From Alphaproteobacteria bacterium (GTDB taxonomy: Bacteria > Pseudomonadota > Alphaproteobacteria > UBA6615): a stretch of 64,000 nucleotides of DNA. The position numbers and the translations under genes are program-made. The stretch covers positions 131,854-195,853 of the forward strand of contig JBDXCV010000009.1 in assembly GCA_039980135.1 (NCBI GenBank), in the 5' to 3' direction. Of the stretch, positions 1,197 through 62,880 are shown piece by piece (position 1 is the first letter of the stretch; every line of letters starts with the position of its first letter). The notes beneath the pieces are model-generated. The model was not told where the DNA came from, did no database searches, and worked only from the letters and a program-made list of their open reading frames with translations.

Positions 1197-1942
1197 AACA
1201 GCTCCCCCTGATCGGGCGGTTCGTCTGCCAGGACGTGGGGCGTCAGCAGCTCCGGGCCGTCGTTGCGGATGTCATTGACGGCGCGACCCACGGGCACGAC
1301 GCGGACGATGTCTTCCGGTGCCGGGTGCAGCAGAGCGCCCGCCGCCTCCCTGTCGAAACGGTCGTCCGTCCCGTTGCCCAGCCAGGTATCGAAGCTGTCG
1401 GGGTTGAGGATCACCGGCATGCGGTGATGGAACGGCCGCAGGGTCTCGTTGGCCTCGGTGGTAATAATCGTCGCGGTCTCGAGTTCCGACCCGTCCGGCC
1501 CGAGCCACGCGTCCCACAATCCCGCGAAGCTGATCAGCCCGCCGTCGGGCCGGGATATCCAGACCGGCTGCTTGGGGCCGGTGCCGGTGGATTGCCATTC
1601 GTAGAAGCCGCTCGCCGGGATGAGGCAGCGCCGCCGCCGGAACGGGGCCCGAAAGGAAGGTTTCTTCGCGATCGTCTCGGCCCGGGCGTTGATCATCCGT
1701 GCGCCCATCGCCGGGTCCTTCGCCCAGGACGGCACCAGCCCCCAGCCGAATAGCGCGGGGACGCGGGCAAGTTCATCGATATTGCCGCCCGCATCGTCCC
1801 GGCTGGCGGCGCGAATAATCGCGACGATCGCCTGGGACGGCGCGATGTTGTAGCGCGGCTGCAACTCGAAGGTCGCCGACACCAGCCCATAAGCCGCGTG
1901 GATCTCTTCCCAGGAATGCATGAGGCCGAATCGTCCGCACAT
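1193..1942 (-). CDS. SOS response-associated peptidase (SRAP/YedK, DUF159)
   Basis: 249 aa beginning MCGRF. The invariant N-terminal Cys2 followed by GRF is diagnostic of the SRAP/HMCES family. Confidence 0.85.
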   Translation of the reverse strand: MCGRFGLMHSWEEIHAAYGLVSATFELQPRYNIAPSQAIVAIIRAASRDDAGGNIDELARVPALFGWGLVPSWAKDPAMGARMINARAETIAKKPSFRAPFRRRRCLIPASGFYEWQSTGTGPKQPVWISRPDGGLISFAGLWDAWLGPDGSELETATIITTEANETLRPFHHRMPVILNPDSFDTWLGNGTDDRFDREAAGALLHPAPEDIVRVVPVGRAVNDIRNDGPELLTPHVLADEPPDQGELF

Positions 1943-2349
1943 TCCGCTATTTTACACCGTTCCAAACAGGGGGCAGACAGGGTTTTGGCCGCGTTTTGTC
2001 GGTGATCCCGTTTCGTTCGCCGCTAAATTCCCGAGTCGCTTTGGGGCCGACCACAAGATTTTGGGTTTCGGAGTACAAACCGGGCACAAAGGATTTGAGT
2101 CGATTGCGGCGGCAAGACGTAATGATTTGGCAAATATCGGGGTTTTCCGGGCGCCCATCCGGCTCTCACATTGACTCCCCCGCCACAAAGATTACAATGT
2201 TCCCGTCTTGTTCACGGTGACAGGTCGCCAACATTTAGTGTTTACTGAATGTTACGGCTCTAGATGTTGTGGGTTATGCAGGTTTTCCACTGAAAACTGC
2301 CCACAAGGTGTGGAGCGCCTGGATTATCGCGTGGAGGGGGCCTTTATAA

Positions 2350-4365
2350 ATGGACGGATCAACCGGGATTCCGACTGAAAACAGCGCTGTGGAAAAGGCG
2401 CTCAAAGTGGAAGAAAACAAGGAAATGGACCTGTTTGATTCGCTCGATTTGGAGCCGTCCGAGGCGGAGACCGAGGAACGGGCAGCCGAATCCGAAGCGC
2501 AACCGGATGTGGATAACGACCTCGTCGGCAAGGACGACGAGACCGCGAACGTCTACCAGACCGATCGCGTCCGTATCCTGATCGATCCGGCGCGTGACGC
2601 CAACCTGACGGCCTTCGGCAAGGAAACCCTGGAAGACCGCTACCTTCTGAACGACGAGAAGGGCTCGCCCCAGAAGCTGTTCGCCCGCGTCGCGTGTCAC
2701 TACGCCGACGATTCGGCTCATGCCCAGCGCATCTACGATTACATCTCGAACCTCTGGTTCATGCCGGCCACGCCTGTTCTTTCCAATGGCGGCACCCAGC
2801 GCGGCCTGCCGATCTCCTGCTTCCTCAACGAAGCCTCCGATTCGCTCGAGGGCATCGTCGATCTGTGGAACGAGAATGTCTGGCTCGCCGCGCGCGGCGG
2901 CGGCATCGGCAGCTACTGGGGCAACCTGCGCTCCATCGGCGAGCAGGTCGGTCACAACGGCAAGACTTCGGGCGTCGTCCCGTTCATCCGGGTGATGGAT
3001 TCGCTCACCCTGGCCATCAGCCAGGGCTCACTGCGGCGCGGCTCGGCGGCGGTCTATCTGCCGATCGACCATCCCGAGATCGAGGAGTTCATCGAGATCC
3101 GGCGCCCCACCGGCGGCGATCCGAACCGCAAGGCCCAGAACCTGCATCATGGTGTGCTGGTGTCGGACGCGTTCATGCGCGCCGTCGAGGCCGACGAGGA
3201 CTGGGCGCTGGTCAGCCCGAAGGACCGCGCGCCGATCGCCACGGTCAAGGCGCGCAGCCTGTGGATCCGCCTGCTGACGGCGCGGATCGAGACGGGCGAG
3301 CCCTACATCGTCTATTCCGACACCGTGAACAGCAATGTGCCCGAGCATCAGAAGCTCGCGGGCCTGACGGTCAAGACGTCGAACCTGTGCTCCGAGATCA
3401 CCCTGCCCACGGGCCTGGATCATCTCGGCAATGACCGCACCGCCGTGTGCTGCCTGTCGTCGCTGAATGTCGAGAACTTCATCGAATGGAAGGACCACCC
3501 GACCTTCATCGAGGATGTGATGCGCTTCCTCGACAATGTGTTGCAGGACTTCATCGACAACGCGCCCGACCATTTCACCAAGGCCAAGTATTCCGCCGCG
3601 CGCGAGCGCTCGGTCGGGCTCGGCATCATGGGCTTCCACTCGTTCCTGCAGGAACAGATGGTGCCGTTCGAATCCGCCGTCGCGAAGGCGTGGAACAAGA
3701 AGATGTTCAAGCATATTCGCGGCCAGGCTGACGAAGCCTCGAAGACGCTCGCGGCCGAACGCGGGGCCTGCCTCGACGCCGCCGATTACGGCATCGAGGA
3801 GCGCTTCTCCAACAAGATGGCGATCGCGCCGACCGCGTCGATCTCGATCATCTGCGGCGGCGCCTCGCCGGGCATCGAGCCGATCGCGGCCAACAGCTTC
3901 ACCCACAAGACCCTGTCGGGCTCGTTCAACGTGCGCTCCAAGGCGCTGCAGAGCCTGCTCGCCGAGAAGGGTCAGAACACGGACGAGACCTGGTCGTCGA
4001 TCACGGCCAATGAGGGCTCGGTCCAGCATCTGGATTTCCTGACCCAGGACGAGAAGGACGTGTTCAAGACGGCCTTCGAGATCGATCAGCGCTGGGTCAT
4101 CGACCTGGCCGCCGACCGCTCGCCGGAGATCTGCCAGTCCCAGTCGCTCAACGTCTTCCTGCCGGCGGACGTGCACAAGCGCGACCTGCACCAGATTCAT
4201 TTCCAGGCGTGGAAGAAGGGTGTGAAGAGCCTCTACTACTGCCGCTCGAAATCCCTGCAGCGCTCCGAGAGCGTGGCCGCACTGGTGCCGGTGACGGCGG
4301 ACGACGAGGCCGACCGCGCCGCGGCAAGCCGCAACGATTACGAAGAGTGTCTCGCCTGCCAGTAG
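2350..4365 (+). CDS. nrdA: ribonucleoside-diphosphate reductase class Ia alpha subunit
   Basis: 671 aa with conserved RNR motifs (LSNGGT, ISCFLNE, NLCSEI) and a C-terminal Cys pair (CLACQ). An nrdB gene follows directly. The true start may lie downstream of 2350. Confidence 0.9.
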   Translation: MDGSTGIPTENSAVEKALKVEENKEMDLFDSLDLEPSEAETEERAAESEAQPDVDNDLVGKDDETANVYQTDRVRILIDPARDANLTAFGKETLEDRYLLNDEKGSPQKLFARVACHYADDSAHAQRIYDYISNLWFMPATPVLSNGGTQRGLPISCFLNEASDSLEGIVDLWNENVWLAARGGGIGSYWGNLRSIGEQVGHNGKTSGVVPFIRVMDSLTLAISQGSLRRGSAAVYLPIDHPEIEEFIEIRRPTGGDPNRKAQNLHHGVLVSDAFMRAVEADEDWALVSPKDRAPIATVKARSLWIRLLTARIETGEPYIVYSDTVNSNVPEHQKLAGLTVKTSNLCSEITLPTGLDHLGNDRTAVCCLSSLNVENFIEWKDHPTFIEDVMRFLDNVLQDFIDNAPDHFTKAKYSAARERSVGLGIMGFHSFLQEQMVPFESAVAKAWNKKMFKHIRGQADEASKTLAAERGACLDAADYGIEERFSNKMAIAPTASISIICGGASPGIEPIAANSFTHKTLSGSFNVRSKALQSLLAEKGQNTDETWSSITANEGSVQHLDFLTQDEKDVFKTAFEIDQRWVIDLAADRSPEICQSQSLNVFLPADVHKRDLHQIHFQAWKKGVKSLYYCRSKSLQRSESVAALVPVTADDEADRAAASRNDYEECLACQ

Positions 4366-4458
4366 GCAAGTGACAAAATACCGATGCGTAACGCCCCGGG
4401 CCGCCCCTGAAAATTGGCTGCGCCGGGGCCTCGCATCCGAGGGAGAGGAAAGAGGATC

Positions 4459-5418
4459 ATGTCGCTTCTCGAAGAGCGCGTTCAGTACAAGCCGTTCAGC
4501 TATCCGTGGGCCTATGACGCCTGGCTGATGCAGCAGCGTGTCCACTGGTTGCCCGAAGAGGTGCCGCTGGCCGACGATGTGAAGGACTGGCACCGCACCC
4601 TGAACAATTCCGAGCGCAACCTGCTGACCCACATCTTCCGCTTCTTCACCCAGGCCGATGTGGAAGTGAACAACTGCTACATGAAGCACTACTCGCAGGT
4701 GTTCAAACCCACCGAGGTGCAGATGATGCTGGCGGCGTTCTCCAATATCGAGACCGTCCATATCTCCGCCTACTCCCATCTGCTCGACACGATCGGCATG
4801 CCCGAGACCGAGTATTCGGCGTTCCTGAAGTATCAGCAGATGAAGGACAAATACGACTACATGCAGGAGTTCGGCATCTCGACGAACCGGGACATCGCCA
4901 AGACGCTGGCGATGTTCGGCGCGTTCACCGAGGGCCTGCAGCTTTTCGCGTCCTTCGCGATCCTGATGAACTTCCCGCGCTTCAACAAGATGAAGGGCAT
5001 GGGCCAGATCGTCACCTGGTCGGTGCGCGACGAGAGCCTGCACACCGCCTCGATCATCAAGCTGTTCCGCACCTTCATCAACGAGAACCCGGAAATCTGG
5101 GACGAAGAGTTCCAGCGCGAGCTCTATGTGGCCTGCGAGACCGTCCTGAACCATGAGGACGCCTTCATCGACCTGGCGTTCGAGATGGGCGGCATCGAGG
5201 GGCTCGAGGGCCGCGAGGTGAAGCAGTATATCCGCTACATCGCCGACCGCCGCCTGTCCCAGCTGGGTCTGCAGCCGGTGTACCGGATCGAGAAGAACCC
5301 GCTGCCCTGGATGGAAGAGATGCTCAACGGCGTCGAGCATGCGAACTTCTTCGAGAACCGGGCGACGGAATATTCCAAGGCCGCCACCGAAGGCAGCTGG
5401 GAAGAGGCCTTCGAGTAG
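4459..5418 (+). CDS. nrdB: ribonucleoside-diphosphate reductase beta subunit
   Basis: Ferritin-like R2 sequence (MSLLEERVQYKPFSYPWAYD…). The start is placed at ATG 4459 behind a GGGAGAGGAAAGAGG RBS. The ORF-track start at 4414 is an upstream extension. Confidence 0.9.
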   Translation: MSLLEERVQYKPFSYPWAYDAWLMQQRVHWLPEEVPLADDVKDWHRTLNNSERNLLTHIFRFFTQADVEVNNCYMKHYSQVFKPTEVQMMLAAFSNIETVHISAYSHLLDTIGMPETEYSAFLKYQQMKDKYDYMQEFGISTNRDIAKTLAMFGAFTEGLQLFASFAILMNFPRFNKMKGMGQIVTWSVRDESLHTASIIKLFRTFINENPEIWDEEFQRELYVACETVLNHEDAFIDLAFEMGGIEGLEGREVKQYIRYIADRRLSQLGLQPVYRIEKNPLPWMEEMLNGVEHANFFENRATEYSKAATEGSWEEAFE

Positions 5419-5434
5419 GCTGAAGCCCCATCTT

Positions 5435-5525
5435 CGTCATGCCCGGACTTGATCCGGGCATCTCGCCTCACCGCATTGCCAATCGAATACCAACAGAGAT
5501 GCGCGGATCTAGTCCGCGCATGACG
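5435..5525. repeat. MITE/REP-like intergenic element (family A): two inverted hairpin units CGTCATGCCCGGACTTGATCCGGGCATCTC … GAGATGCGCGG…CCGCGCATGACG
   Basis: The arms are reverse complements of each other. Each arm is itself a hairpin (ATGCCCGG/CCGGGCAT). Lies between nrdB and the permease. Confidence 0.8.
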
Positions 5526-5563
5526 GCGTTTGTTCATGTTTCAAGCGTGGTAGAAATCATCCC

Positions 5564-7330
5564 ATGACCCCCGACCAGATCATCATCTTCGCCATCCTCG
5601 GCTTTTCCCTCGTGTTCTTCATGTGGGGCCGCTGGCGTTATGACATCGTGGCCTTCACCGCGCTGATCCTCGCCGTGATCGGTGGCGTGGTGCCGACCGA
5701 CCTGGCGTTCCGGGGCTTCGGCCACCCGGCGGTGATCACGGTCGCCGCGGTGCTGGTGATCAGCCGCACGCTGCAGGTCTCCGGCGTCATCGACCTGATC
5801 GCCGGCGCCGTCCTGCGGATGGCAAAGAGCCAGGGCAGTCAGATGACCGCCCTGTCGGGCATCGGTGCCGTGCTGTCGGCCTTCATGAACAATGTCGGTG
5901 CGCTGGCGCTGCTCATGCCGCTGGCGCTGCGCCTGTCCGAGCGCCCCTCGGCCGTGCTGATGCCGCTATCGTTTGCCACCATCCTCGGCGGCTTGGTCAC
6001 CCTGATCGGCACCCCACCGAATATTATCGTCGCGACCTTCCGCACGGATGTAACCGGCGAGCCGTTTGCGCTGTTTGATTTTGCCTTCGTCGGCCTGCCC
6101 ATCGCGCTGATCGGGCTGATCTTCGTCCTGGTGATCGGCTGGCGATTGCTCCCCTCGGACCGGACCGGGCGACGCTCGGCCGAGGAGATGTTCGATCTGG
6201 ATTCCTACGTGGTCGAGGTCAACGTCGATGCGGAATCCGAATTCATCGGCAAGACCGTGCGCGACCTCGAGGCGCTGGACGAGGACCGCTCCATCGTCGT
6301 CGGGCTGCTCCGGGAAGATTCACGACGCCTGACCTATATCCAGAATGAGCGGCTGCGTGCCGACGACACGCTGCTTCTGCGCGTGGACCCGGCGACCCTC
6401 GACGACCTGCTCAAGAAAGGCGGGCTGACGCTCACCGGCAGCGAGCATCTCGAAGAGCAAAACATCCGCTCCGACCAGGTCGGCACCGTCGAAGCGGTTG
6501 TCCAGCCCGGCTCCCGGATCGAGGGGCGCAGCCCGCAAACACTTGGCATGCGCCGGCGGTTCGGCGTCGCCCTCCTGGCTCTCGCCCGGGAAGGCCAGCC
6601 GGTCCGCGAACGCCTGGCACGCACCCAGTTTCGCGCCGGCGACGTACTGCTGCTCCAGGGCAATGAGGAGGAGCTCACCGACGCCGTCGCCGAAATGGGT
6701 TGCCTGCCGCTCGCCGAGCGGCGGCTGACGGTCGGCAAACCGCGCGCCGTGCTGATCCCCATCCTAATCTTCACGGCCTCCGTTCTGTCGACCGTGATGG
6801 GTTGGACGCCGGTCCATGTGTCATTCGCCGCCGCCGTGGTGGCGCTGATCCTGCTCAACCGGATCAGCGCCAACGAGGCCTACCAGACGATCGAATGGCC
6901 GGTCATCGTGCTGCTTGGGGCGATGATCCCACTGGGCAATGCGCTCCAGTTCACCGGCGGCACCCAGCTGATTGCCGAAAGCATCGTCGGCCTGTCCGGC
7001 AGCATCCCCATCTGGGCGGTGCTGACCATCGTGCTGGTCGTGACCATGACCCTGTCGGACCTGATGAACAACGCCGCCACGGCCATCGTCATGGCGCCGA
7101 TCTCGGTCGCGATCGCGAACCAGCTCGGGGTCAATGCCGACCCGTTCCTGATGGCGGTCGCCATCGGCGCTTCCTGCGCCTTCCTGACCCCGATCGGGCA
7201 TCAGAACAACGTGCTGGTGATGGGCCCGGGCGGCTACCGCTTCGGCGACTACTGGCGCATGGGCCTGCCGCTTGAGATCATCATCGTCGCCACGTCGGTA
7301 CCGCTGATCCTAATCTTCTGGCCGCTTTAG
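5564..7330 (+). CDS. DASS/SLC13-type anion permease with two central TrkA-C domains
   Basis: 588 aa. Hydrophobic N- and C-terminal halves flank two soluble TrkA_C-like repeats, resembling the YbiR/CitT-like ArsB/NhaD permease superfamily. Confidence 0.7.
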   Translation: MTPDQIIIFAILGFSLVFFMWGRWRYDIVAFTALILAVIGGVVPTDLAFRGFGHPAVITVAAVLVISRTLQVSGVIDLIAGAVLRMAKSQGSQMTALSGIGAVLSAFMNNVGALALLMPLALRLSERPSAVLMPLSFATILGGLVTLIGTPPNIIVATFRTDVTGEPFALFDFAFVGLPIALIGLIFVLVIGWRLLPSDRTGRRSAEEMFDLDSYVVEVNVDAESEFIGKTVRDLEALDEDRSIVVGLLREDSRRLTYIQNERLRADDTLLLRVDPATLDDLLKKGGLTLTGSEHLEEQNIRSDQVGTVEAVVQPGSRIEGRSPQTLGMRRRFGVALLALAREGQPVRERLARTQFRAGDVLLLQGNEEELTDAVAEMGCLPLAERRLTVGKPRAVLIPILIFTASVLSTVMGWTPVHVSFAAAVVALILLNRISANEAYQTIEWPVIVLLGAMIPLGNALQFTGGTQLIAESIVGLSGSIPIWAVLTIVLVVTMTLSDLMNNAATAIVMAPISVAIANQLGVNADPFLMAVAIGASCAFLTPIGHQNNVLVMGPGGYRFGDYWRMGLPLEIIIVATSVPLILIFWPL

Positions 7331-7341
7331 CTCTGTAAAAT

Positions 7342-7416
7342 CGTGATGCGCGGACTTGATCCGCGCATCTTGTCCCCGCCGAAGAAGAGATACCCGGGCC
7401 AAGCCCGGGTATGACG
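7342..7416. repeat. family A intergenic inverted-repeat element
   Basis: CGTGATGCGCGGACTTGATCCGCGCATC … GAGATACCCGGGCCAAGCCCGGGTATGACG. Confidence 0.8.
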
Positions 7417-7501
7417 TTTAAGATCTTGGCGTACGGTCGGCTCGCCGTGTTCGTGACAGGCCGTGACTATTCCCCCTAAACTCAACATCGGAGGGAACAG
7501 C

Positions 7502-8677
7502 ATGCAAACCATCGACATCAGCCCGGAAGAAATGGCGCCGCACATCGCACGCTTCAATGAACAGGAATCCCAGTCGGCGCATTATGCCGCGGACACCGGC
7601 ATCCCGCGCGAAGCCTATGAGATCATGGCGGCCGAAACGCTCTACCTGATGATGGCGCCCGAGAACCAGGGCGGGCCGATGGCCCAGAGGCCCGCCGTCA
7701 GCGGCGACAGCGGCACGAGCGTGATCATCGCGCGCTGCCCGCCGGGCGACAAACCCTTGCTGCACGCCCATCACTTCACCGTCGAGAGCTTCATGTGCCT
7801 GACCGGCAAGTTCCGAATCCGCTGGGGCAGCGCGGGCGAACAGGAGATCGACCTGGAGCCCCATGACATGATCGCCGTACCTCCGGGCGTGGACCGGCAG
7901 TTCGAGAACATCACCGACGAAGAGGCGCTGCTGCTGGTGATCATCAACGGCGAAGGCGATGAGGATTTCTCGGACATCTCGATGCCGCCGGGCGAGACAG
8001 ACTTCATGCGCGAAAAATTCGGTCAGGACGTCCTCGACGCCTACGCGAAGATCGGCACCGCCTGGCGCCACGCCGACGGCAGCATCAGCGGCCCGCAGGT
8101 GCCCGCCCCCATCGAGATTTCGGATGCACAGATGGCGACACGCATCGCGCGCATTGCGGACATGCAGCCGCTGTCGGCCACGTCGGGGGATTCCATCGGC
8201 GTGCCGCGTGAGGCGCGCGAGATGGTCGCGGCGAAGAACCTCTATCTGCTGATGGCGCCCGAGAATCAGGGCGGCCCCATGGCACATCACGCGGCGATCC
8301 AGGGTCCGGACAATATCAGTGTGCTGATCGCCGATTGCCCGCCGGGCGACCGCCCTCTGCTGCATGCCCATCACCACACGGTCGAGACCTTCATGTGCCT
8401 GACCGGTCGTTTTCGCATTCGCTGGGGCGAAGAGGGCCAGGACCATATCGACCTCGACCCCTACGACATGATCGCCGTGCCGCCCGGCGTCGATCGCCAG
8501 TTCGAGAATATCTCGGACGACGACGCGCGGCTGCTGGTGGTGATCACCGGCAGATCGCGCGAGGACTACAACGACATCTCGTTGCCACCACAATCGACGG
8601 CGATCATCCGCGAGCGCTTCGGTCAGGACGTCATCGACGCGTATGGCCAGAACGGGGTGACGGTCCGGGAGGGGTAG
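7502..8677 (+). CDS. bicupin protein (two tandem cupin domains)
   Basis: Two internal repeats of about 190 aa that are clearly homologous (PENQGGPMA…CPPGD+PLLHAHH+TVE+FMCLTG+FRIRWG…MIAVPPGVDRQFENI…FGQDV+DAY). Start placed at ATG 7502 behind GGAGGGA. The ORF track begins at GTG 7463. Confidence 0.7.
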   Translation: MQTIDISPEEMAPHIARFNEQESQSAHYAADTGIPREAYEIMAAETLYLMMAPENQGGPMAQRPAVSGDSGTSVIIARCPPGDKPLLHAHHFTVESFMCLTGKFRIRWGSAGEQEIDLEPHDMIAVPPGVDRQFENITDEEALLLVIINGEGDEDFSDISMPPGETDFMREKFGQDVLDAYAKIGTAWRHADGSISGPQVPAPIEISDAQMATRIARIADMQPLSATSGDSIGVPREAREMVAAKNLYLLMAPENQGGPMAHHAAIQGPDNISVLIADCPPGDRPLLHAHHHTVETFMCLTGRFRIRWGEEGQDHIDLDPYDMIAVPPGVDRQFENISDDDARLLVVITGRSREDYNDISLPPQSTAIIRERFGQDVIDAYGQNGVTVREG

Positions 8678-49432: not shown

Positions 49433-49444
49433 ACTCTCTCTAGT

Positions 49445-49530
49445 CGTCATGCCCGGACTTGATCCGGGCATCTCAGCTCGATTTCAGCCGCGGGGCGCAC
49501 GAGATACGCGGGTCAAGCCCGCGTATGACG
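49445..49530. repeat. family A element
   Basis: CGTCATGCCCGGACTTGATCCGGGCATCTCAG … CGAGATACGCGGGTCAAGCCCGCGTATGACG. Confidence 0.85.
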
Positions 49531-50537: not shown

Positions 50538-50576
50538 GATGTCCTTCTCCCCTATTCTGCAACCACTAAAACCAAT

Positions 50577-50662
50577 CGTCATGCCCGGACTTGATCCGGG
50601 CATCTCAGTTCAATTCCAGCCTCATGGCGCACGAGATACGCGGGTCAAGCCCGCGTATGACG
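50577..50662. repeat. family A element, near-identical direct copy of 49445–49530
   Basis: Same orientation and about 90% identity to the 49445 copy. Together the two copies flank the alpha/beta hydrolase gene. Confidence 0.85.
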
Positions 50663-53360: not shown

Positions 53361-53435
53361 CGTCATGCGCGGGCTTGACCCGCGTATCTCGTCTCAGAAC
53401 CACATGAGATGCCCGGATCAAGTCCGGGCATGACG
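53361..53435. repeat. family A element (opposite orientation)
   Basis: CGTCATGCGCGGGCTTGACCCGCGTATCTCG … GAGATGCCCGGATCAAGTCCGGGCATGACG. Confidence 0.85.
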
Positions 53436-55063: not shown

Positions 55064-55197
55064 ATGCCCGCCTACGCGGGCATGACGCGGCGTTGTGGCC
55101 ATGGCATGACGCCACCCAAAGCCGTCATACGCGGGCTTGACCCGCGTATCTCGTCTCGGCGCGTGATGAGATGCCCGGATCAAGTCCGGGCATGACG
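55064..55197. repeat. family A element (55123–55197) preceded by a solo hairpin unit (55064–55087)
   Basis: ATGCCCGCCTACGCGGGCATGACG solo unit. Then CGTCATACGCGGGCTTGACCCGCGTATCTCG … GAGATGCCCGGATCAAGTCCGGGCATGACG. Confidence 0.8.
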
Positions 55198-56664: not shown

Positions 56665-56694
56665 CGTCATACACGGGCTTGATCCGGGTATCTC
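56665..56694. repeat. truncated (single-arm) family A element at left junction of low-GC island
   Basis: CGTCATACACGGGCTTGATCCGGGTATCTC is present with no partner arm. The vsr stop codon follows immediately. Confidence 0.65.
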
Positions 56695-57178
56695 ATGCTT
56701 CCTTCATCCTGCGCTTCACCGGCGGCATGCGGGGGATTGTAACAATCTGCCCATCATTACCCCGGATCCAATTCTCGAGCCTGTCCATCGATTTCCCAAG
56801 AAGATCGTTCCGATCAACCAGCCCGCACTCCCAAACCACTGCCACACGCCAGCCCTCTTTCAGGAGATGCCGAACGTTACGTCCGTCCCTCTCAACATTC
56901 CCCTGAATCTTCTCGACCCACCACTTCGTATTCGTACTCGGCGTAGTCGCTTTGGCGCAGTTCTTGTGGTGGTGCCAGTAACAACCATGCACAAAGACTA
57001 CCGTCCGAAATTTCGGCAACTTGATATCCGGAGCACCTGGAAGTGTTCGATCATGAAGCGTAAACCTGAAACCTCTGGAGTGGAGGCCTCTTCTCACAAG
57101 CAGTTCCGGCTTGGTGTTCTTGCCACGAATGCCGGACATCATTCTGGAGCGTGTCTTGCGATCAACGATGTCAGCCAT
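56693..57178 (-). CDS. vsr: very short patch repair endonuclease
   Basis: MADIVDRKTRSRMMSGIRGKNTKPE… parallels the E. coli Vsr N-terminus. VVFVHGCYWHHH motif present. Lies in low-GC DNA. Confidence 0.9.
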   Translation of the reverse strand: MADIVDRKTRSRMMSGIRGKNTKPELLVRRGLHSRGFRFTLHDRTLPGAPDIKLPKFRTVVFVHGCYWHHHKNCAKATTPSTNTKWWVEKIQGNVERDGRNVRHLLKEGWRVAVVWECGLVDRNDLLGKSMDRLENWIRGNDGQIVTIPRMPPVKRRMKEA

Positions 57179-57261
57179 GACCTGCACGCCGCCCTGGTTT
57201 GGTTTTACGGTTCCAATATACTTCACAACGCCCCGGTCAACGCAGAAAGCAAGTACGAGAG

Positions 57262-58893
57262 ATGAAATCGCCTATCAAGGTAGTTGACGTATTTGCTGGT
57301 CCTGGCGGGCTTGGAGAAGGCTTCTCTGCGCTCACACACGGCTCGGGTGAAGATTGTTGGCGCCCGTTCAAGATCACCATCTCCGCCGAGATGGATCCGG
57401 TCGCACGGGAAACTCTTCGTTTGCGTGCGTTTTACCGCCAGTTCCCGGACGCGGCGCATGTTCCAGACGAGTACTTCGATTACCTCGCGAACCCGACCAC
57501 AGAAGCATTCGAAATACTATCGGAGCGCTTTTCCGAAGAGTGGGCGGAGGCCAACGGTGAAGCACTTCAGCTAGAACTTGGGAACGAAGACGACGACGCA
57601 AAGCTTTACAGGTTGCTCGACGCACGAGTTGAAGAAAACAGCGACTGGATATTGGTGGGAGGCCCCCCGTGTCAGGCCTACTCACTGGTGGGTCGAGCCA
57701 GGAATCAGGGTAAAGATGACTATGTCCCTGAGGAGGATCACCGCCACCTGCTCTACCGAGAATACCTGAAGATAATTCAGAAGAAGCGCCCTGCTGTCTT
57801 CGTCATGGAGAACGTCAAGGGACTTCTCTCTTCCACGCTCGATGGGGCACCGATCTTTGATCGTATCCTGGAGGACCTCAGCGATCCGGACCTGGCGCTG
57901 GAGCACAGTCCAAGCGCCGAGGGACAAGGGTATCGACTGTATTCGATGCTGACCGGTGAGTGTTATTCGCGCGACAAAACACTCGCTCGCATTGACCCCC
58001 GCAGTTTCATACTGCGTGCAGAGGAGTACGGAGTTCCTCAGCGTCGGCACCGAATTTTCATTCTTGGGGTACGAGAGGACATCGAGCCGGACTTTGACCT
58101 TATCCTGCCCAAATCTGAGATGCCGGCGCCGAGCTTGCGCGCCGTAATTGGGGATCTGCCGCCACTACGGAGCGGTTTGTCCCGACGTGGCCGAACGTCG
58201 CCAGATACGTATGAACTCTGGTCCAGGGAAGTCATTAACCAGGCTGAGCTAGTAGCCACGGCTCTTCATGAGACCGGCTCGGATACTCTGTTCGAAGCAA
58301 ATTTCGATGAGATCCGCGAAGTGTTGAACGAGGCGGCCAACAGTCTTCGAACACGCAATGAACCGCTCGAACGTCGACACCAATCCGAAAGAACGCTTCA
58401 TCCGGAAATGGACCCGGATGTGACGCGCACGCTCGTTGAATGGCTTACCAATGACCGCCTACGTTCGGTTGCCAATCATGAAACCCGCGCGCACATAGCA
58501 AAAGATTTCGGGCGCTATCTTTTTTGCGCCGCCTGGGCCTCGGTGGAGAAGTACTCGCCCAAATCCGACGAGTTTCCATTAGGACTGGCACCAGCTCACA
58601 AAAACTGGTCGACAGGCAAATTCGCTGATCGATTCCGGGTTCAGGTCGCGGAAGACACGGCCACCACGATCACCAGCCATATCTCAAAAGATGGACACTA
58701 CTTCATCCACTACGATCCTGCACAATGCCGAAGCCTCACCGTAAGGGAAGCGGCGCGGCTACAGACTTTTCCTGATGACTATTTCTTCATGGGACCCAGA
58801 ACCCAGCAATACCATCAGGTTGGAAATGCCGTTCCCCCCTTCTTGGCCAAGCAAATTGCTGGGCTCGTGCTTCAGATAGTCTCGAAAAGCTAA
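57262..58893 (+). CDS. dcm: DNA (cytosine-5)-methyltransferase
   Basis: Motif I FAGPGG, motif IV PPCQAYS, motif VI ENV, motif X QVGNAVPP. 543 aa. Divergent from vsr. Confidence 0.9.
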   Translation: MKSPIKVVDVFAGPGGLGEGFSALTHGSGEDCWRPFKITISAEMDPVARETLRLRAFYRQFPDAAHVPDEYFDYLANPTTEAFEILSERFSEEWAEANGEALQLELGNEDDDAKLYRLLDARVEENSDWILVGGPPCQAYSLVGRARNQGKDDYVPEEDHRHLLYREYLKIIQKKRPAVFVMENVKGLLSSTLDGAPIFDRILEDLSDPDLALEHSPSAEGQGYRLYSMLTGECYSRDKTLARIDPRSFILRAEEYGVPQRRHRIFILGVREDIEPDFDLILPKSEMPAPSLRAVIGDLPPLRSGLSRRGRTSPDTYELWSREVINQAELVATALHETGSDTLFEANFDEIREVLNEAANSLRTRNEPLERRHQSERTLHPEMDPDVTRTLVEWLTNDRLRSVANHETRAHIAKDFGRYLFCAAWASVEKYSPKSDEFPLGLAPAHKNWSTGKFADRFRVQVAEDTATTITSHISKDGHYFIHYDPAQCRSLTVREAARLQTFPDDYFFMGPRTQQYHQVGNAVPPFLAKQIAGLVLQIVSKS

Positions 58894-58926: not shown

Positions 58927-59760
58927 CTAGGCTGCCTGCCGGGTTGCCTTAACCCGACGGAGCGCTTCATCGCGGCAATTCAGAAGTATCTTGTCAGTCT
59001 CCTGATCCGACAGCGACTCGAAAAGCACACCGCTTCCCCGAAGGTTCAGGGCCTTCATGAATTCGCGAAAAGTGGCTTCAGTCCCGTAAACATCCGGCTG
59101 GCTTCGCATCGTCCGAATAATTCCGCGCAACAGGCTCGCCCGGTTACTGAGTATCGGACGTTCGACAAGGTTCGAACGGATGTCCGCACTTCTCAGCAAC
59201 TCTGCCAGCATCGTCACCTGATCCTCAGGGTCTACGCGCCACGCAATGTACGCGTTCCACCAGAGACGGGATATGGCGTTGTCGTCACGGTAACCTGTTC
59301 GTCCGCGTGCAAAGTAATGATTTTCAACTTGGCTGATATTGTCGTGCAGAATCCTCATTCGCTGTTCTGCGACCTTTTCATTCGATCCCACAAGGTTGCT
59401 CAGCAGATTGTTCGGTTCCTTCGGTTCATCCTTCAGTGGCCAACGTTTCCGGACGTAACCAAGGCATTCGAAATGTGTCAGGCGGCTCCAGATACGCTCT
59501 TCGGTCGCGAGCGCCGGGGTCATCCCTTCGAAAGCGTTGAAAACAATCATGGAGTTGCTGACTTCAGCGGCACTTCCACCGGCCGGGTCGAGCTTGCCGA
59601 GTTTCTCCGGATCGACCTCAACAGAAGATAATTCCATCGCCCAACCATTCAGATCAGCGCAGTCGTCAAAGCCTGAACTGCGATAACGCTCAAGGTTCGA
59701 AGGGACGTTGGCTTTCAGGTCCGCGAGGATACTTTCCGCTACGTACTTTAGTTTAGGCAT
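58927..59760 (-). CDS. hypothetical protein, distal gene of GHKL-ATPase operon
   Basis: 277 aa. No recognisable motifs beyond a possible Rx4H (RMRILH). Overlaps the upstream gene by 8 nt. Confidence 0.5.
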   Translation of the reverse strand: MPKLKYVAESILADLKANVPSNLERYRSSGFDDCADLNGWAMELSSVEVDPEKLGKLDPAGGSAAEVSNSMIVFNAFEGMTPALATEERIWSRLTHFECLGYVRKRWPLKDEPKEPNNLLSNLVGSNEKVAEQRMRILHDNISQVENHYFARGRTGYRDDNAISRLWWNAYIAWRVDPEDQVTMLAELLRSADIRSNLVERPILSNRASLLRGIIRTMRSQPDVYGTEATFREFMKALNLRGSGVLFESLSDQETDKILLNCRDEALRRVKATRQAA

Positions 59761-60598
59761 TGTCCGTCAGCTCCATGAATGCTCCACCAAGCTTCTCGAC
59801 CGGGGAGCCGAGAAGCCTTTGTGCACTTTCCAGCAGGGGCGCCTGTTCAATATCAATCCCGAGGTGTTCGCACTTCGCTGAAAAAACCCGGTACCAGGGC
59901 CGGTCCTCGAACCCGGAATCTCCCTGTCCGCGGATGCTTTCCAGAACTTCCATCACGACCGGCATGTAGACTGCACTCAACAATACAGGCTTGCCTCCTC
60001 TGGTTCCGCGCATCTGTTCGATCGACTTGAACAGATCGAGCGGTGCAAGAATGCGGATTGCATCTGCCAACAGGTCCAGCTTCAGCCTGCCTTTGGGAAT
60101 ATCGTCGGAAGGAACAAGCTCAAAAATGCTCTCAAATTTCCGGAGCTTGTCCTGCCCGATGTGGAAGACGGTGTCGTTGGCGAGGCCAATGATTTCGGAC
60201 CCGCGGATCGAAACGGCGCCACCAAATTCTGGGTTTAGGTTCTCCGCTTGCCAGTCCTTCAGTGGCCTGGCGAGCCAGATCGCCGGCTTTGCCTCGACAC
60301 GTCCATAGAGGGATCCACGATCAAAACGCCAGGTTCCTGTCGTCTCGTCTATGGCCCGAAGTTCCGAATAGAAGGTGTCCTGACACCGAATAAAAGCGCC
60401 CACGCGCGCGGTACCGTCATCTACCAGAGCCTGCACGTCGGATGACGCGAGCGACACAGCGAAATCAACCTCCACATTACCGTCGGTAGACTCACGAACT
60501 TCAGCGATCTGAAGATCAAAGCTACCGCTGAGAAAATCATCATTACCATCACTCAGAACCGGATGCGGGAAATGGCTGTTCAGATCGATTTTCATCAA
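59753..60598 (-). CDS. hypothetical protein, middle gene of GHKL-ATPase operon
   Basis: 281 aa. Overlaps the upstream ATPase gene by 4 nt. No recognisable family from sequence alone. Confidence 0.5.
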   Translation of the reverse strand: MMKIDLNSHFPHPVLSDGNDDFLSGSFDLQIAEVRESTDGNVEVDFAVSLASSDVQALVDDGTARVGAFIRCQDTFYSELRAIDETTGTWRFDRGSLYGRVEAKPAIWLARPLKDWQAENLNPEFGGAVSIRGSEIIGLANDTVFHIGQDKLRKFESIFELVPSDDIPKGRLKLDLLADAIRILAPLDLFKSIEQMRGTRGGKPVLLSAVYMPVVMEVLESIRGQGDSGFEDRPWYRVFSAKCEHLGIDIEQAPLLESAQRLLGSPVEKLGGAFMELTDNA

Positions 60599-62499
60599 CT
60601 CGCCCTCCGCACAGCATAAACCTCAACCGGGCCGGTATAGTCGTCATCGAAAGTTACTTCGATCTCGACGCGCGCGCCCTGGTCAACGTTTAGTTCGACG
60701 CGTCCGTGTTTCGCCGCACATTTCTTCGCTCCGGAGGCGGTTTCCACTCTGAGTTCGGTCTCGTAGAAGACGCCTGTTGCAAGAAATGTAAGCTCTATGT
60801 CGCCAGCTTCATCAGGAGTGAAAAAGACTTTCCTGACCTTCGCACTCTTCTCAACATTTCGTACTGTCGTAAGGCGCACGTCTGGTTTTTGCCCCCAGGT
60901 GCCATCGCCACCTTCTCCGGAACCTGAACCATCGCCTTGTCCGTCTGTGCCAGCACCGCCACCTCCATCGTCGTGGCCTGCGCCGCCTTCATCACCTTCA
61001 CCATGTGGAGCCACGGGCTTGATAGGTTTTGGCCTGACGCGTTTCGTCGGTTTAAAGCTGATCGTTTCAGGATCGTCTTCAGCTGAGGGAATTTTGGCCT
61101 CTTCGCTTCCTGCGTCAGCAAAGAACTCGCCGAGCTCATCGAGTTTGGTCGCATCCCCTCCAGTGATTTCCGCGTTTTCCTGGATCATGGTGCGGATCTC
61201 ACGGATCAGCCGCTTCATTGCCCGGGTGACATTTTTTTGTTTTTTGGGATTATCAAGGCGTCCTGGTGAAAAGGCGTTGTGCTGCGGGTTCTCCAGAGAC
61301 TTCAAAACCTTGCTGGCCTCATCATCAGCCGGCTCGACCAGCATGATAAAATCCCGTGCACCCGGGAATCTTGCGAATTTATCTCCGAAGTGTTCGAGTG
61401 ATTGGGCGATCAGCATACCGTTGCGAACGATTGCGACACGCTTGGGCATGCCCTCTTTAACGAGGATCTTTGCCTTGAACTCACCGAGATCGTCGACTTG
61501 AAACCTCTTTGTAACAGCCTCGTCTGATTTGCGGCAGCGATAGATCTGCCCGGCAAGGCGAAAATCATCACCATGTGAGGCCTCTTCGGCCACTTTTTCA
61601 ATGGCTGCGTCATCGAGCAGTGATGCGAGATTCTCACCGTTGACGATGCGCGCACCATCTCCAACTTCGAATTCGATATCGCCGTCGTCGACTGCCACAA
61701 AAAAATTTGACAGAAGCGGGACCGTCATGCGGTCGACCCAGTCTTCGCGCCCTCGGAAACCGACAGAAAAGACGGAGGTGCCCTTGCTGTCGCGCTTGAG
61801 CCATTCAGGAACCAGGTCCGGCTCCTCAACCGCCGCGAAGTGACCCGGGTGGCCCCAGTAGCCCTTCGCGGTTCGCTCTACACCGGCGGCATCCCGATGT
61901 GAAACGAGTTGCACCTTACCCTGAAGTGCGAACTTAAGATCGTTCGCGGGTCCATAGAGTGTGGAATAGAAAACAGTTCGAAGGTCGGAAACTGCAAAGG
62001 TTGCGTTCTTCCCAATTCCGAACGAACCACCCGACGTGTCCGTAGGCTTGTCGCTCTTGCCGGAGCTTTTCACGAGTGCGTGAAAATTTGATTCGGCGCT
62101 GTTTGGAGGGCCCTCCAACCCTGTCGTGTTGAAATCGGCGATTTCTAGGACCGGAATGACGTCGCTCGAGACAACATCATATGCATTCTCGAAATAGTCC
62201 CGGTCTTTCTCGCTTCCTGTCGCACGGGCAGCTTCCAGGCATGACGAAATGGTCTCCCTCAGTTTGTCGATGCCGGGAATTTCGTCCGCAGGCACTTTGT
62301 GCTCTCGAAGCACCATCCGGACAGGCCGACTGTCTGCGGCATCTAGCGTGTTCTGGCCCGCTTCGCGGCTACAGCTAACGAAAGGTGTGTCGCGAAATGT
62401 CTCGATGCCGGCATGCCCAAGCCCCTCGACCTCGCCCGCCTGATTTTCAAGAAACTCCAGCCGTACGTCCGTCATTTCAACCAGTCCCCGTTTCATCAA
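60595..62499 (-). CDS. MutL/MORC-type GHKL (Bergerat-fold) ATPase with Gly/Asp-rich linker and C-terminal domain
   Basis: GHKL motif I ExxxNxxDA (REAGQNTLDA). Motif II D-x-N-x-x-G-L (DFNTTGL). Motif III GGSFGIGKNATFAVS. Motif IV GTSV. Low-complexity HGEGDEGGAGHDDGGGGAGTDGQGDGSGSGEGGDG linker, then a ~90 aa C-terminal domain. Confidence 0.7.
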   Translation of the reverse strand: MMKRGLVEMTDVRLEFLENQAGEVEGLGHAGIETFRDTPFVSCSREAGQNTLDAADSRPVRMVLREHKVPADEIPGIDKLRETISSCLEAARATGSEKDRDYFENAYDVVSSDVIPVLEIADFNTTGLEGPPNSAESNFHALVKSSGKSDKPTDTSGGSFGIGKNATFAVSDLRTVFYSTLYGPANDLKFALQGKVQLVSHRDAAGVERTAKGYWGHPGHFAAVEEPDLVPEWLKRDSKGTSVFSVGFRGREDWVDRMTVPLLSNFFVAVDDGDIEFEVGDGARIVNGENLASLLDDAAIEKVAEEASHGDDFRLAGQIYRCRKSDEAVTKRFQVDDLGEFKAKILVKEGMPKRVAIVRNGMLIAQSLEHFGDKFARFPGARDFIMLVEPADDEASKVLKSLENPQHNAFSPGRLDNPKKQKNVTRAMKRLIREIRTMIQENAEITGGDATKLDELGEFFADAGSEEAKIPSAEDDPETISFKPTKRVRPKPIKPVAPHGEGDEGGAGHDDGGGGAGTDGQGDGSGSGEGGDGTWGQKPDVRLTTVRNVEKSAKVRKVFFTPDEAGDIELTFLATGVFYETELRVETASGAKKCAAKHGRVELNVDQGARVEIEVTFDDDYTGPVEVYAVRRAS

Positions 62500-62723
62500 A
62501 TCCGAAAGGAATCATCGTCAGCTTTCTCGCCACGAGAAAATCGACCTTTTGCAATTTCGAGTTCTTTTTGTAACGCGCGGAACATTTTTCGGATGTCCTC
62601 TTCGGTGAACTCGTATGCGGAGCGGTTCGAAAGATTACCGATTAGTTTGAGGTCCTTGATTGCCCGGTTGACCCTGTTCTCCGCGAGTTCGATGAACTTC
62701 GCCCTCTTGTCTCGTTCCGGCAT
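62496..62723 (-). CDS. small hypothetical protein, first gene of island operon
   Basis: 75 aa, predicted helical and charged. Overlaps the ATPase start by 4 nt. Sits immediately downstream of an AT-rich promoter region. Confidence 0.4.
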   Translation of the reverse strand: MPERDKRAKFIELAENRVNRAIKDLKLIGNLSNRSAYEFTEEDIRKMFRALQKELEIAKGRFSRGEKADDDSFRI

Positions 62724-62880
62724 GTAAATATCAGTCCCATTTTTCTAATATGACGATATTATAATATTCATTTGTCATATTTCAAGCAATATATTCTATA
62801 TATTTCACATAATATAGATACATCATTCTTCTTATATGACATAAAAATCATATATCATTTATTTTGTAGTATTCTGCGCT
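62724..62880. promoter_or_regulatory. AT-rich promoter region of island operon with inverted repeat AATATGAC-N18-GTCATATT and additional TATGACA copies
   Basis: A very AT-rich stretch in an otherwise GC-rich window. Inverted repeat at 62748–62755 / 62774–62781. TATGACA recurs at 62834–62840. Confidence 0.4.

Follow-up and report, generated by a model that had tools for sequence, protein, structure and literature searches.

Organization of the locus

A 64,000-nucleotide (nt) stretch of contig JBDXCV010000009.1 (Alphaproteobacteria bacterium, assembly GCA_039980135.1, positions 131,854 to 195,853 of the forward strand), here called the window, carries four tightly packed minus-strand open reading frames (ORFs) between 58927 and 62723. 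They encode a protein of 75 amino acids (aa), a putative ATPase (A), and two further proteins (B and C), and they lie beside genes for a C5-cytosine DNA methyltransferase and a Vsr endonuclease (Table 1). A, B, C, and the 75-aa gene form a conserved, co-inherited operon that is obligatorily linked to a C5-cytosine methyltransferase. A preliminary description of this sequence, made without database searches, had presented B and C as two co-operonic proteins of unknown function downstream of a GHKL ATPase and had named them as candidate sensor and effector components if the operon were a restriction or defense module.

Both ORFs were found on the minus strand where the preliminary description had placed them, and the only correction concerns the start of B. 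The 281-aa frame (59753..60598) opens with TTG, and the codon that follows is ATG (60595-60593), from which a protein of 280 aa is read. The ATG is probably the start, because the identical NCBI protein and essentially all homologues have the same length. The identical NCBI proteins, from a Paracoccaceae metagenome-assembled genome, are annotated as "hypothetical protein" (280 aa) and "DUF6339 family protein" (277 aa). Word-index searches returned 199 homologues for C and 70 for B, and a full hidden Markov model scan of 1.84 billion representative proteins placed the relatives of B in 2,949 clusters at 50% identity. A length of ~275-280 aa was kept almost throughout the best 150 of these 2,949 clusters. 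The homologue counts and the conserved length indicate that B and C are genuine genes and not chance ORFs.

The overlapping stop and start codons, read from the sequence, also bore out the proposal that B and C are co-operonic and translationally coupled, together with the upstream ATPase gene. At the A/B junction (TGATG), the A of the ATPase stop codon TGA (60597-60595) is the first base of the B ATG, and a Shine-Dalgarno-like GGAGG lies 8 nt 5' of the B start. The B stop codon TAA (59755-59753) falls within the C start region, ATGCCTAA, giving a B/C overlap of 8 nt, and a Shine-Dalgarno-like GGAG lies 10 nt 5' of the C start. The stop codon TGA of the 75-aa ORF and the ATPase ATG at 62496 likewise have one nucleotide in common (TGATG). 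Related loci, described below, were also tightly coupled, with a 4-nt A-B overlap in 37/55 and a 4-nt B-C overlap in 24/55, counts that rest on mechanically called starts. Approximately 35 nt 5' of the 75-aa ORF, in an AT-rich spacer, lies a promoter-like site that is a consensus match only; it was the sole near-consensus site found, and promoter-like sites in the region were no more numerous than the shuffle expectation.

The three larger proteins matched the three profiles of one PADLOC candidate family. PDC-M33A matched the ATPase (expectation value [E] = 1.9e-104, profile positions 4-622 of 627), PDC-M33B matched B (E = 2.4e-40, positions 2-274 of 289), and PDC-M33C matched C (E = 1.3e-31, positions 1-237 of 247). 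The genes are adjacent and co-directional in the catalogue order A>>B>>C (FAM_02818>>FAM_02838>>FAM_01881), and on these profile matches the window locus is assigned to PDC-M33. In the catalogue's account, PDC-M33 is cassette CAS_00129, with 98 RefSeq instances and the remark "assign as candidate"; it is listed there as 1 of 145 untested phage defense candidates and was nominated because BREX, DISARM, and type I restriction-modification loci were seen to contain instances of it (Payne et al. 2024, bioRxiv 10.1101/2024.01.29.577857). A literature search found no paper naming PDC-M33 or DUF6339 and no characterized equivalent. The catalogue model consists of three genes without assigned function and leaves the 75-aa gene outside. 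Relative to that catalogue entry, the present analysis adds the 75-aa first gene, the obligatory C5-methyltransferase (with Vsr), and the existence of architectures with and without an EcoRII-like gene.

Table 1. Positions of the genes and other features in the window
Feature	Position	Strand	Remarks
75-aa ORF (S75)	62496..62723	-	First gene of the cassette
PDC-M33A (A), putative divergent GHKL-type ATPase	60595..62496	-	633 aa from ATG
PDC-M33B (B)	59753..60595	-	280 aa from ATG; the 281-aa ORF of the preliminary description
PDC-M33C (C), DUF6339	58927..59760	-	277 aa
C5-cytosine DNA methyltransferase, long DrmMII-like type	57199..58893	+	Likely start ATG 57262
Vsr very-short-patch repair endonuclease	56693..57226	-	Likely start ATG 57178
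Promoter-like site, TTGAAA, 16-nt spacer, TATAAT	62758..62785	-	11/12 consensus matches
REP/MITE-like repeat, copy 1	49444..49530		
REP/MITE-like repeat, copy 2	50576..50662		
REP/MITE-like repeat, copy 3	53361..53435		
REP/MITE-like repeat, copy 4	55123..55197		

Linkage to C5-methyltransferases

Related loci were collected by scanning a single genome for each GTDB species, with mechanical gene calling and iterative searches for the six window proteins. The scan yielded 77 loci from Pseudomonadota, Cyanobacteria, Nitrospinota, Planctomycetota, Actinomycetota, Verrucomicrobiota, Thermodesulfobacteriota, and other phyla, and 55 of the 77 held an intact A-B-C cassette. All intact cassettes with adequate flanks (39/39) had a C5-methyltransferase no more than 5.2 kb away, and 37/39 also had Vsr. 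The methyltransferase module stood upstream or downstream of the cassette and in either orientation, for four arrangements in all. When neighboring ORFs were clustered without bias, recurrence was limited to the three cassette proteins, the C5-methyltransferase, Vsr, and a family of ~415 aa, which Pfam (E down to 1e-69) and PADLOC (REase_II) identify as a type II endonuclease with an EcoRII-C domain. A cassette that is widespread and always beside a C5 methyltransferase is most likely the part that attacks DNA in an unusual defense system resembling restriction-modification. The PDC-M33 match and this invariable linkage together agree with the earlier suggestion that the operon is a restriction- or defense-type module.

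The four genes and a C5-methyltransferase were also present in Prosthecochloris, in Ferrovibrio, and on a mobilizable Planococcus plasmid, and they were found beside the integrase of a temperate [Clostridium] innocuum phage, there with a C5-methyltransferase and without Vsr. The cassette is therefore mobile, with plasmid and phage copies. In IMG/VR, the B profile picked out a single viral contig with the cassette, which indicates that the system is rarely phage-borne. In the phage copy (L083; NatCom_9291, PV036421.1), the cassette region spans 1907-8274, C has a C-terminal extension of ~100 aa, and the methyltransferase is a C5 type fused to a helix-turn-helix domain. The adjoining segment of the phage (8275-11177) contains a gene for an AAA_5 (McrB-like) ATPase and another uncharacterized gene, possibly a second system.

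Two architectures were distinguished among the intact loci. Type 1, to which the window belongs (29/55), mostly has a long DrmMII-like methyltransferase, with Vsr and no EcoRII-like gene. Type 2 (26/55) has a short Dcm/M.EcoRII-like methyltransferase (matching NCBIfam PRK10458 at ~415 bits), Vsr, and the EcoRII-like endonuclease, for example at L036:5254-6501, L056:4006-5253 (minus strand), and L005:15367-16617. The 75-aa gene was enriched where the EcoRII-like gene was absent, being present in 23/29 type 1 loci vs 9/26 type 2 loci (p = 0.001). Among the 27 type 1 loci with a methyltransferase, no other gene family recurred in more than 3 loci, which leaves the cassette as the only candidate restriction partner in those loci.

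The cassette genes have evolved together. The pairwise identities of A, B, and C were intercorrelated (Spearman 0.66-0.74), and their correlation with the identities of the methyltransferase was ~0 and with those of Vsr 0.04; Vsr and the methyltransferase were weakly correlated with one another (0.21). Loci L003 and L004, for instance, are 93% identical in A, 89% in B, and 89% in C, and their methyltransferases are 28% identical. Between near-identical cassettes with different methyltransferases, no hypervariable specificity-like segment was seen in A, B, or C; the differences were scattered. These comparisons suggest that the cassette can work with C5-methyltransferases of unrelated families. 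Such compatibility implies either that the cassette reads 5-methylcytosine (m5C) without a matched specificity domain or that all partner enzymes have one target, such as CCWGG. As the target of the EcoRII-type partner methyltransferases, CCWGG is plausible. The DrmMII of a Bacillus class 2 DISARM system is reported to place m5C at CCWGG (also written CCNGG in the same preprint), and targets differ within the DrmMII family, a Serratia enzyme methylating MTCGAK (bioRxiv 10.1101/2021.12.28.474362). A k-mer test of CCWGG and very-short-patch (VSP) repair, meant to infer the methyltransferase target, gave a depletion of CTWGG in the host part of the window under a mononucleotide model that was gone under a maximal-order Markov model.

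The EcoRII-like genes, always accompanied by a Dcm/M.EcoRII-like methyltransferase and Vsr in the 26/55 intact loci that have them, suggest another role for the cassette, the leading alternative to a restriction function but one that we regard as unlikely. A, B, and C would be an accessory looping or matchmaker module that stimulates a separate nuclease, either the EcoRII-like enzyme or Vsr, and would thereby enhance conventional m5C restriction or very-short-patch repair. EcoRII-like type IIE enzymes need at least two sites, and MutL stimulates Vsr in Escherichia coli. The lack of a nuclease motif in A, B, and C and the regular presence of Vsr (37/39 intact loci with adequate flanks) are in keeping with an accessory role. 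A looping role has been proposed for MORC/paraMORC proteins, and the functional link of MutL to Vsr was noted in the same work (Iyer et al., PMC2292703). However, 29/55 intact loci, including the window, are without an EcoRII-like gene, and no other nuclease family recurs in the 27 of these that have a methyltransferase. Vsr is missing from intact loci L024, L033, and L074 and from the phage copy, and it does not co-evolve with A, B, and C (rho ~0.04), though it weakly tracks the methyltransferase (0.21). A pure repair role would also leave unexplained the PDC-M33 instances embedded in defense loci and the carriage by a plasmid and a prophage.

The loss of cassette genes was asymmetric. In the 49 loci with adequate flanks, intact cassettes had a methyltransferase in 39 cases and were without one in 0, and degraded cassettes had one in 6 cases and were without one in 4 (Fisher p = 0.001). 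This is the pattern expected if the cassette is harmful without the methyltransferase, as is the case for restriction genes. On gene content, then, the locus appears to behave as a restriction-modification system in two respects: a methyltransferase is linked to it, and the putative restriction genes do not persist without the methyltransferase, while methyltransferases do persist beside degraded cassettes. Two of the decayed cassettes, L038:8808-10750 and L029:6986-10735, have an intact C and no methyltransferase, and an insertion sequence (rve transposase) lies upstream of C in L038. In L029, a 528-aa gene without known function and a 460-aa PLD-domain gene replace A and most of B. This PLD gene, which precedes C, was considered as a Rosetta-stone fusion to B, but it was seen in no other locus, and the remnant of B (its last ~50 codons) is in another frame. 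We interpret L029 as a decayed cassette and not as a fusion.

The linkage and the decay asymmetry, with zero intact cassettes lacking a methyltransferase, would also be produced by a guard or addiction module, an explanation to which we give very little weight. Here a toxic complex would be restrained by continuing cytosine methylation or by the methyltransferase protein itself. Interference with methylation by a phage or plasmid, or loss of the island, would then lead to death or arrest of the cell, as in abortive infection or post-segregational killing, and not to a direct attack on the invading DNA. The lack of a recognizable nuclease and the pairing with unrelated methyltransferase families are consistent with such a module. 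However, no toxin-type domain (membrane, NADase, RNase, or kinase) was detectable, and the partner is always of the C5 class yet comes from different families. Constant C5 chemistry in varied families argues for the sensing of a DNA mark and not of the methyltransferase protein. The guard explanation overlaps with a restriction function, and sequence alone does not separate the two.

The putative ATPase

In 57 sequences of A, the residues R44-E45..N49..D52, D121..T124.G126, G157..G160.G162-K163, and G239-T240 were invariant. GHKL motifs I (ExxxNxxD), II (DxGxG-like), III (GxxGxG), and IV (GT) are all present in the expected order, and at the level of motifs A would be a divergent GHKL-type (Hsp90/MutL-like) ATPase. 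None of the 38 members of the A family that were searched matched a Pfam GHKL model, and the family profile matched no chain in the PDB. The ATP-binding domain of sacsin gave a weak match to A (E = 0.029). Alignment with hhalign set motif I of E. coli MutL on A residues 36-53 and motif III of E. coli HtpG on residues 137-172 (GGSFGIGKNAxFAVSD vs IGQFGVGFYSAFIVAD), each at ~1% probability. Probabilities for A against the GHKL references were 1-3% overall, and forcing the N-terminal domains into alignment gave no convincing result.

Beyond the GHKL motifs, R358.G360 and E402.P404.H406 are invariant in a middle domain. The second of these, E402-N-P-x-H406, follows the GHKL domain and, as an ExxxH motif, is reminiscent of the published paraMORC2 signature. 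Judging from conservation, this ExPxH motif is the best unexplained catalytic-looking motif of the cassette, and it lies in A, not in B or C. A Gly-rich linker (~residues 495-535) separates the body of the protein from a C-terminal domain of ~90 aa, in which R546, G575, and R609 are conserved. The linker (window 60890-61010) is acidic and of low complexity, with 27% Gly, and is the most variable part of A among close relatives.

Proteins B and C

B is acidic (isoelectric point [pI] 4.7) and has an N-terminal (F/Y)PHPVL...D20 motif; it matched no Pfam family. In its AlphaFold2 (AF2) model, a beta-sandwich (~residues 25-185) is followed by a helical C-terminal domain (186-280), with a predicted local distance difference test (pLDDT) score of 86 and a predicted template modeling (pTM) score of 0.55. 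Foldseek matched the model only to generic FN3-like or cytokine-receptor-like sandwiches in the PDB (E of at least 2e-3, template modeling [TM] score ~0.24), and comparison with viral structures gave nothing specific. C belongs to Pfam family DUF6339 (PF19866; 137.9 bits vs a cut-off of 23.2, E = 3.9e-40), the only Pfam family among A, B, and C. Its AF2 model is mostly alpha-helical (pLDDT 92.8, pTM 0.88) and had no fold match among PDB structures in Foldseek (best E = 1.1, TM ~0.1). Searches of all PDB chains with family profiles of B, C, A, and the 75-aa protein returned no match with E below 0.03. With confident models and no specific PDB match, B and C may be without solved structural relatives.

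In alignments that include Firmicutes and Chlorobi homologues, the residues of B conserved in at least 95% of sequences are P12, L14, D20, T74, I180, P212, and W234. Those of C at the same level are W91, H96, R106, W107, R158, and R165, together with W167, W168, R201, N239, and G244; the acidic positions D159, D160, and E98 are not conserved in the deep alignment. By their type, the deeply conserved residues of B and C look like binding or structural residues and not like a metal-dependent nuclease centre. Inspection by eye had revealed no PD-(D/E)xK, HNH, or PLD motif in B or C, and Pfam, NCBIfam, PDB profiles, and Foldseek led to the same result; neither protein had a profile, fold, or conserved motif match to the known nuclease superfamilies PD-(D/E)xK, HNH, PLD, or GIY-YIG. 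The preliminary description would have been refuted by a clear relationship of B or C to metabolic enzymes or phage structural proteins; no such homology was found, and PHROGs was negative.

The one motif that the preliminary description had singled out in C, an Rx4H stretch (RMRILH) that might be HEPN-like, did not hold up. The string does exist, at residues 132-137, and on its strength C could be imagined as a HEPN-like RNase effector; we consider this scarcely credible. In an alignment of 58 sequences, RMRILH lies within an insertion of ~25 residues that is confined to a close clade (at least 56% identity) and that the other homologues lack. Even inside this clade the His is lost, as in P0040, which reads EEIDKTRKQN. 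C had no HEPN match in Pfam or PADLOC, and neither HEPN nor any other fold was matched in the PDB by the model, despite its pLDDT of 92.8. The HEPN idea was rejected on the conservation of RMRILH and the fold search.

The 75-aa protein

The 75-aa protein (S75) is basic (pI 9.45), with invariant K9, F10, R17, L27, N30, N33, and Y37, and its C terminus carries an F-x-L tail. None of its 264 homologues, which are 73-77 aa long, matched Pfam or the PDB. Its gene lies 5' of the ATPase gene in 32/55 intact loci. The protein is more conserved than its neighbors, at 55-80% identity where A, B, and C are at 35-45%.

Proposed function of the cassette

We favor, with moderate confidence, a role for the cassette as the restriction arm in a restriction-modification-like defense system based on m5C. 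Methyltransferases of this kind are known to mark self DNA, and Vsr enzymes to repair the T:G mismatches left by deamination of m5C. The window methyltransferase, presumed to be the self-marking partner of the cassette, would mark host DNA, and Vsr would mend the deamination mismatches. A may act as an ATP-gated dimeric clamp or motor, like other GHKL proteins, and in a complex with B and C it would act on DNA without the mark, damaging or blocking it. C, being all-alpha with invariant Trp, Arg, and His, is a tentative candidate for the reader of DNA or of methylation status. B, with its beta-sandwich and helical domains and few conserved polar residues, could conceivably be an adaptor that couples C to the ATPase. 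The basic 75-aa protein would be a DNA-binding or regulatory cofactor. The candidate catalytic centre is the invariant pair R-x-G and E-x-P-x-H in the middle domain of A.

Several observations weigh against a restriction arm. For every member of PDC-M33, function is a prediction. No nuclease or other effector domain was found in A, B, C, or the 75-aa protein with Pfam, PADLOC, NCBIfam, PDB, or Foldseek, and the GHKL assignment of A is made from its motifs. In the 26/55 intact loci with an EcoRII-like endonuclease beside the methyltransferase, the conventional partner is already present, and the cassette could be accessory there. The absence of co-evolution with the methyltransferase, together with the absence of a hypervariable specificity segment, is unusual for a sequence-specific restriction enzyme. 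The near-universal presence of Vsr fits a repair-linked role equally well. Finally, the roles suggested for B and C derive from residue types and the fold class of the models.

The action on unmarked DNA need not be cleavage. The cassette could also be a prokaryotic, MORC-like silencing machine, in which an ATP-gated GHKL clamp traps, compacts, or blocks the replication of DNA lacking m5C and is not a nuclease; we consider this improbable. In such a machine DUF6339 may be a context-independent reader of cytosine methylation, B and C may be new folds, and the 75-aa protein may be a DNA-binding cofactor. If true, the cassette would be a bacterial counterpart of the MORC-mediated, methylation-linked silencing of invading elements in eukaryotes.

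If instead the cassette is a restriction arm, it represents a widespread means of attacking unmethylated DNA without known restriction nuclease or helicase modules. Its unrelated C5-methyltransferase partners raise the question of how the absence of m5C is sensed without a matched specificity domain, and the same promiscuity gives it appeal as a portable, methylation-gated tool. With six genes in ~6.3 kb, the locus is small and offers a tractable bacterial model for the coupling of GHKL/MORC-type ATPases to cytosine methylation.

Comparison with known systems

Restriction guarded by methylation is a known kind of defense, and the cassette was already flagged as a candidate. The locus differs from all characterized systems in having no recognizable nuclease or helicase, two partner proteins without solved relatives, and promiscuity toward methyltransferase families. 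Iyer, Abhiman and Aravind (2008, PMC2292703) predicted that GHKL ATPases occur in restriction-modification operons alongside cytosine methylases, Vsr, and EcoRII-like nucleases. Like these MORC/paraMORC systems, the window has a putative divergent GHKL ATPase in a mobile operon with a cytosine methylase and Vsr, and many of its relatives have an EcoRII-like gene. The MORC/paraMORC systems, however, are typified by superfamily II helicases or fused nucleases, and the window has two partner proteins instead.

VcSduA, a Shedu protein of the paraMORC3 type, is a validated phage defense in which the GHKL ATPase domain is required together with the nuclease (PMC12137116), and it sets a precedent for ATP-gated GHKL control of an attack on DNA. 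It has no methyltransferase partner and is one polypeptide that includes a PD-(D/E)xK (DUF4263) nuclease, whereas the window system is multi-subunit, linked to a methyltransferase, and without a recognizable nuclease.

In DndFGH, SspFGH, and class 2 DISARM, self DNA is marked by a modification enzyme, and DNA without the mark is damaged by a distinct ATPase module of several proteins, which is the division of labor proposed here; the SspFGH restriction module is toxic without the modification (PMC8092258). These modules have no homology to the window cassette, whose ATPase is of the GHKL type by its motifs and not P-loop, helicase, or FtsK-like. The PADLOC Dnd, Ssp, and Drm models gave no matches to A, B, C, or the 75-aa protein of the window, and the methyltransferase alone matched (DrmMII). 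Membership in DISARM was rejected: DrmA (helicase), DrmB (DUF1998), and DrmC/D/E are absent, and the only component present is the DrmMII-like methyltransferase (E = 1e-86). SspFGH was also considered, as "a GHKL ATPase plus two unknowns". The published description is of a Walker A ATPase and an FtsK-like C-terminus (PMC8092258), and with no PADLOC Ssp match this candidate was also set aside.

The type IIE trio EcoRII-Dcm-Vsr stands beside the cassette in about half of the related loci, and the window retains a methyltransferase and Vsr. The window differs from the trio in having no EcoRII-like gene and a methyltransferase of the long DrmMII-like type, not of the Dcm/M.EcoRII type.

The methyltransferase, Vsr, and the surrounding island

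The window methyltransferase matched Pfam DNA_methylase (E = 2.8e-46), TIGR00675 (E = 5.6e-42), and PADLOC DrmMII with the E value given above. Its gene is convergent with the cassette, with 33 nt between its end and the end of C. The vsr gene is divergent from the methyltransferase gene, and its product, which matched Pfam Vsr (E = 2.3e-27) and TIGR00632 (E = 3.1e-39), is 43% identical to E. coli Vsr. No EcoRII-like gene was found anywhere in the window.

The six genes form a block with a GC content of ~0.55 over 56.7-63 kb (0.50 at 62-63 kb) compared to ~0.63 in the flanks, and this block is a horizontally acquired low-GC island. It is inserted with a luciferase-like monooxygenase gene on one side and an FAD-oxidase-like gene on the other. 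Neither a tRNA gene nor an integrase gene was noticed nearby, nor was a flanking direct repeat.

Outside the island, among metabolic genes, the window contains four copies, in both orientations, of an intergenic repeat of 75-87 nt that resembles repetitive extragenic palindromic (REP) or miniature inverted-repeat transposable (MITE) elements. The repeat is built of two GC-rich hairpin modules, and it yields spurious ORF ends such as "MPGSSPGMT" and "DTRVKPAYDG".

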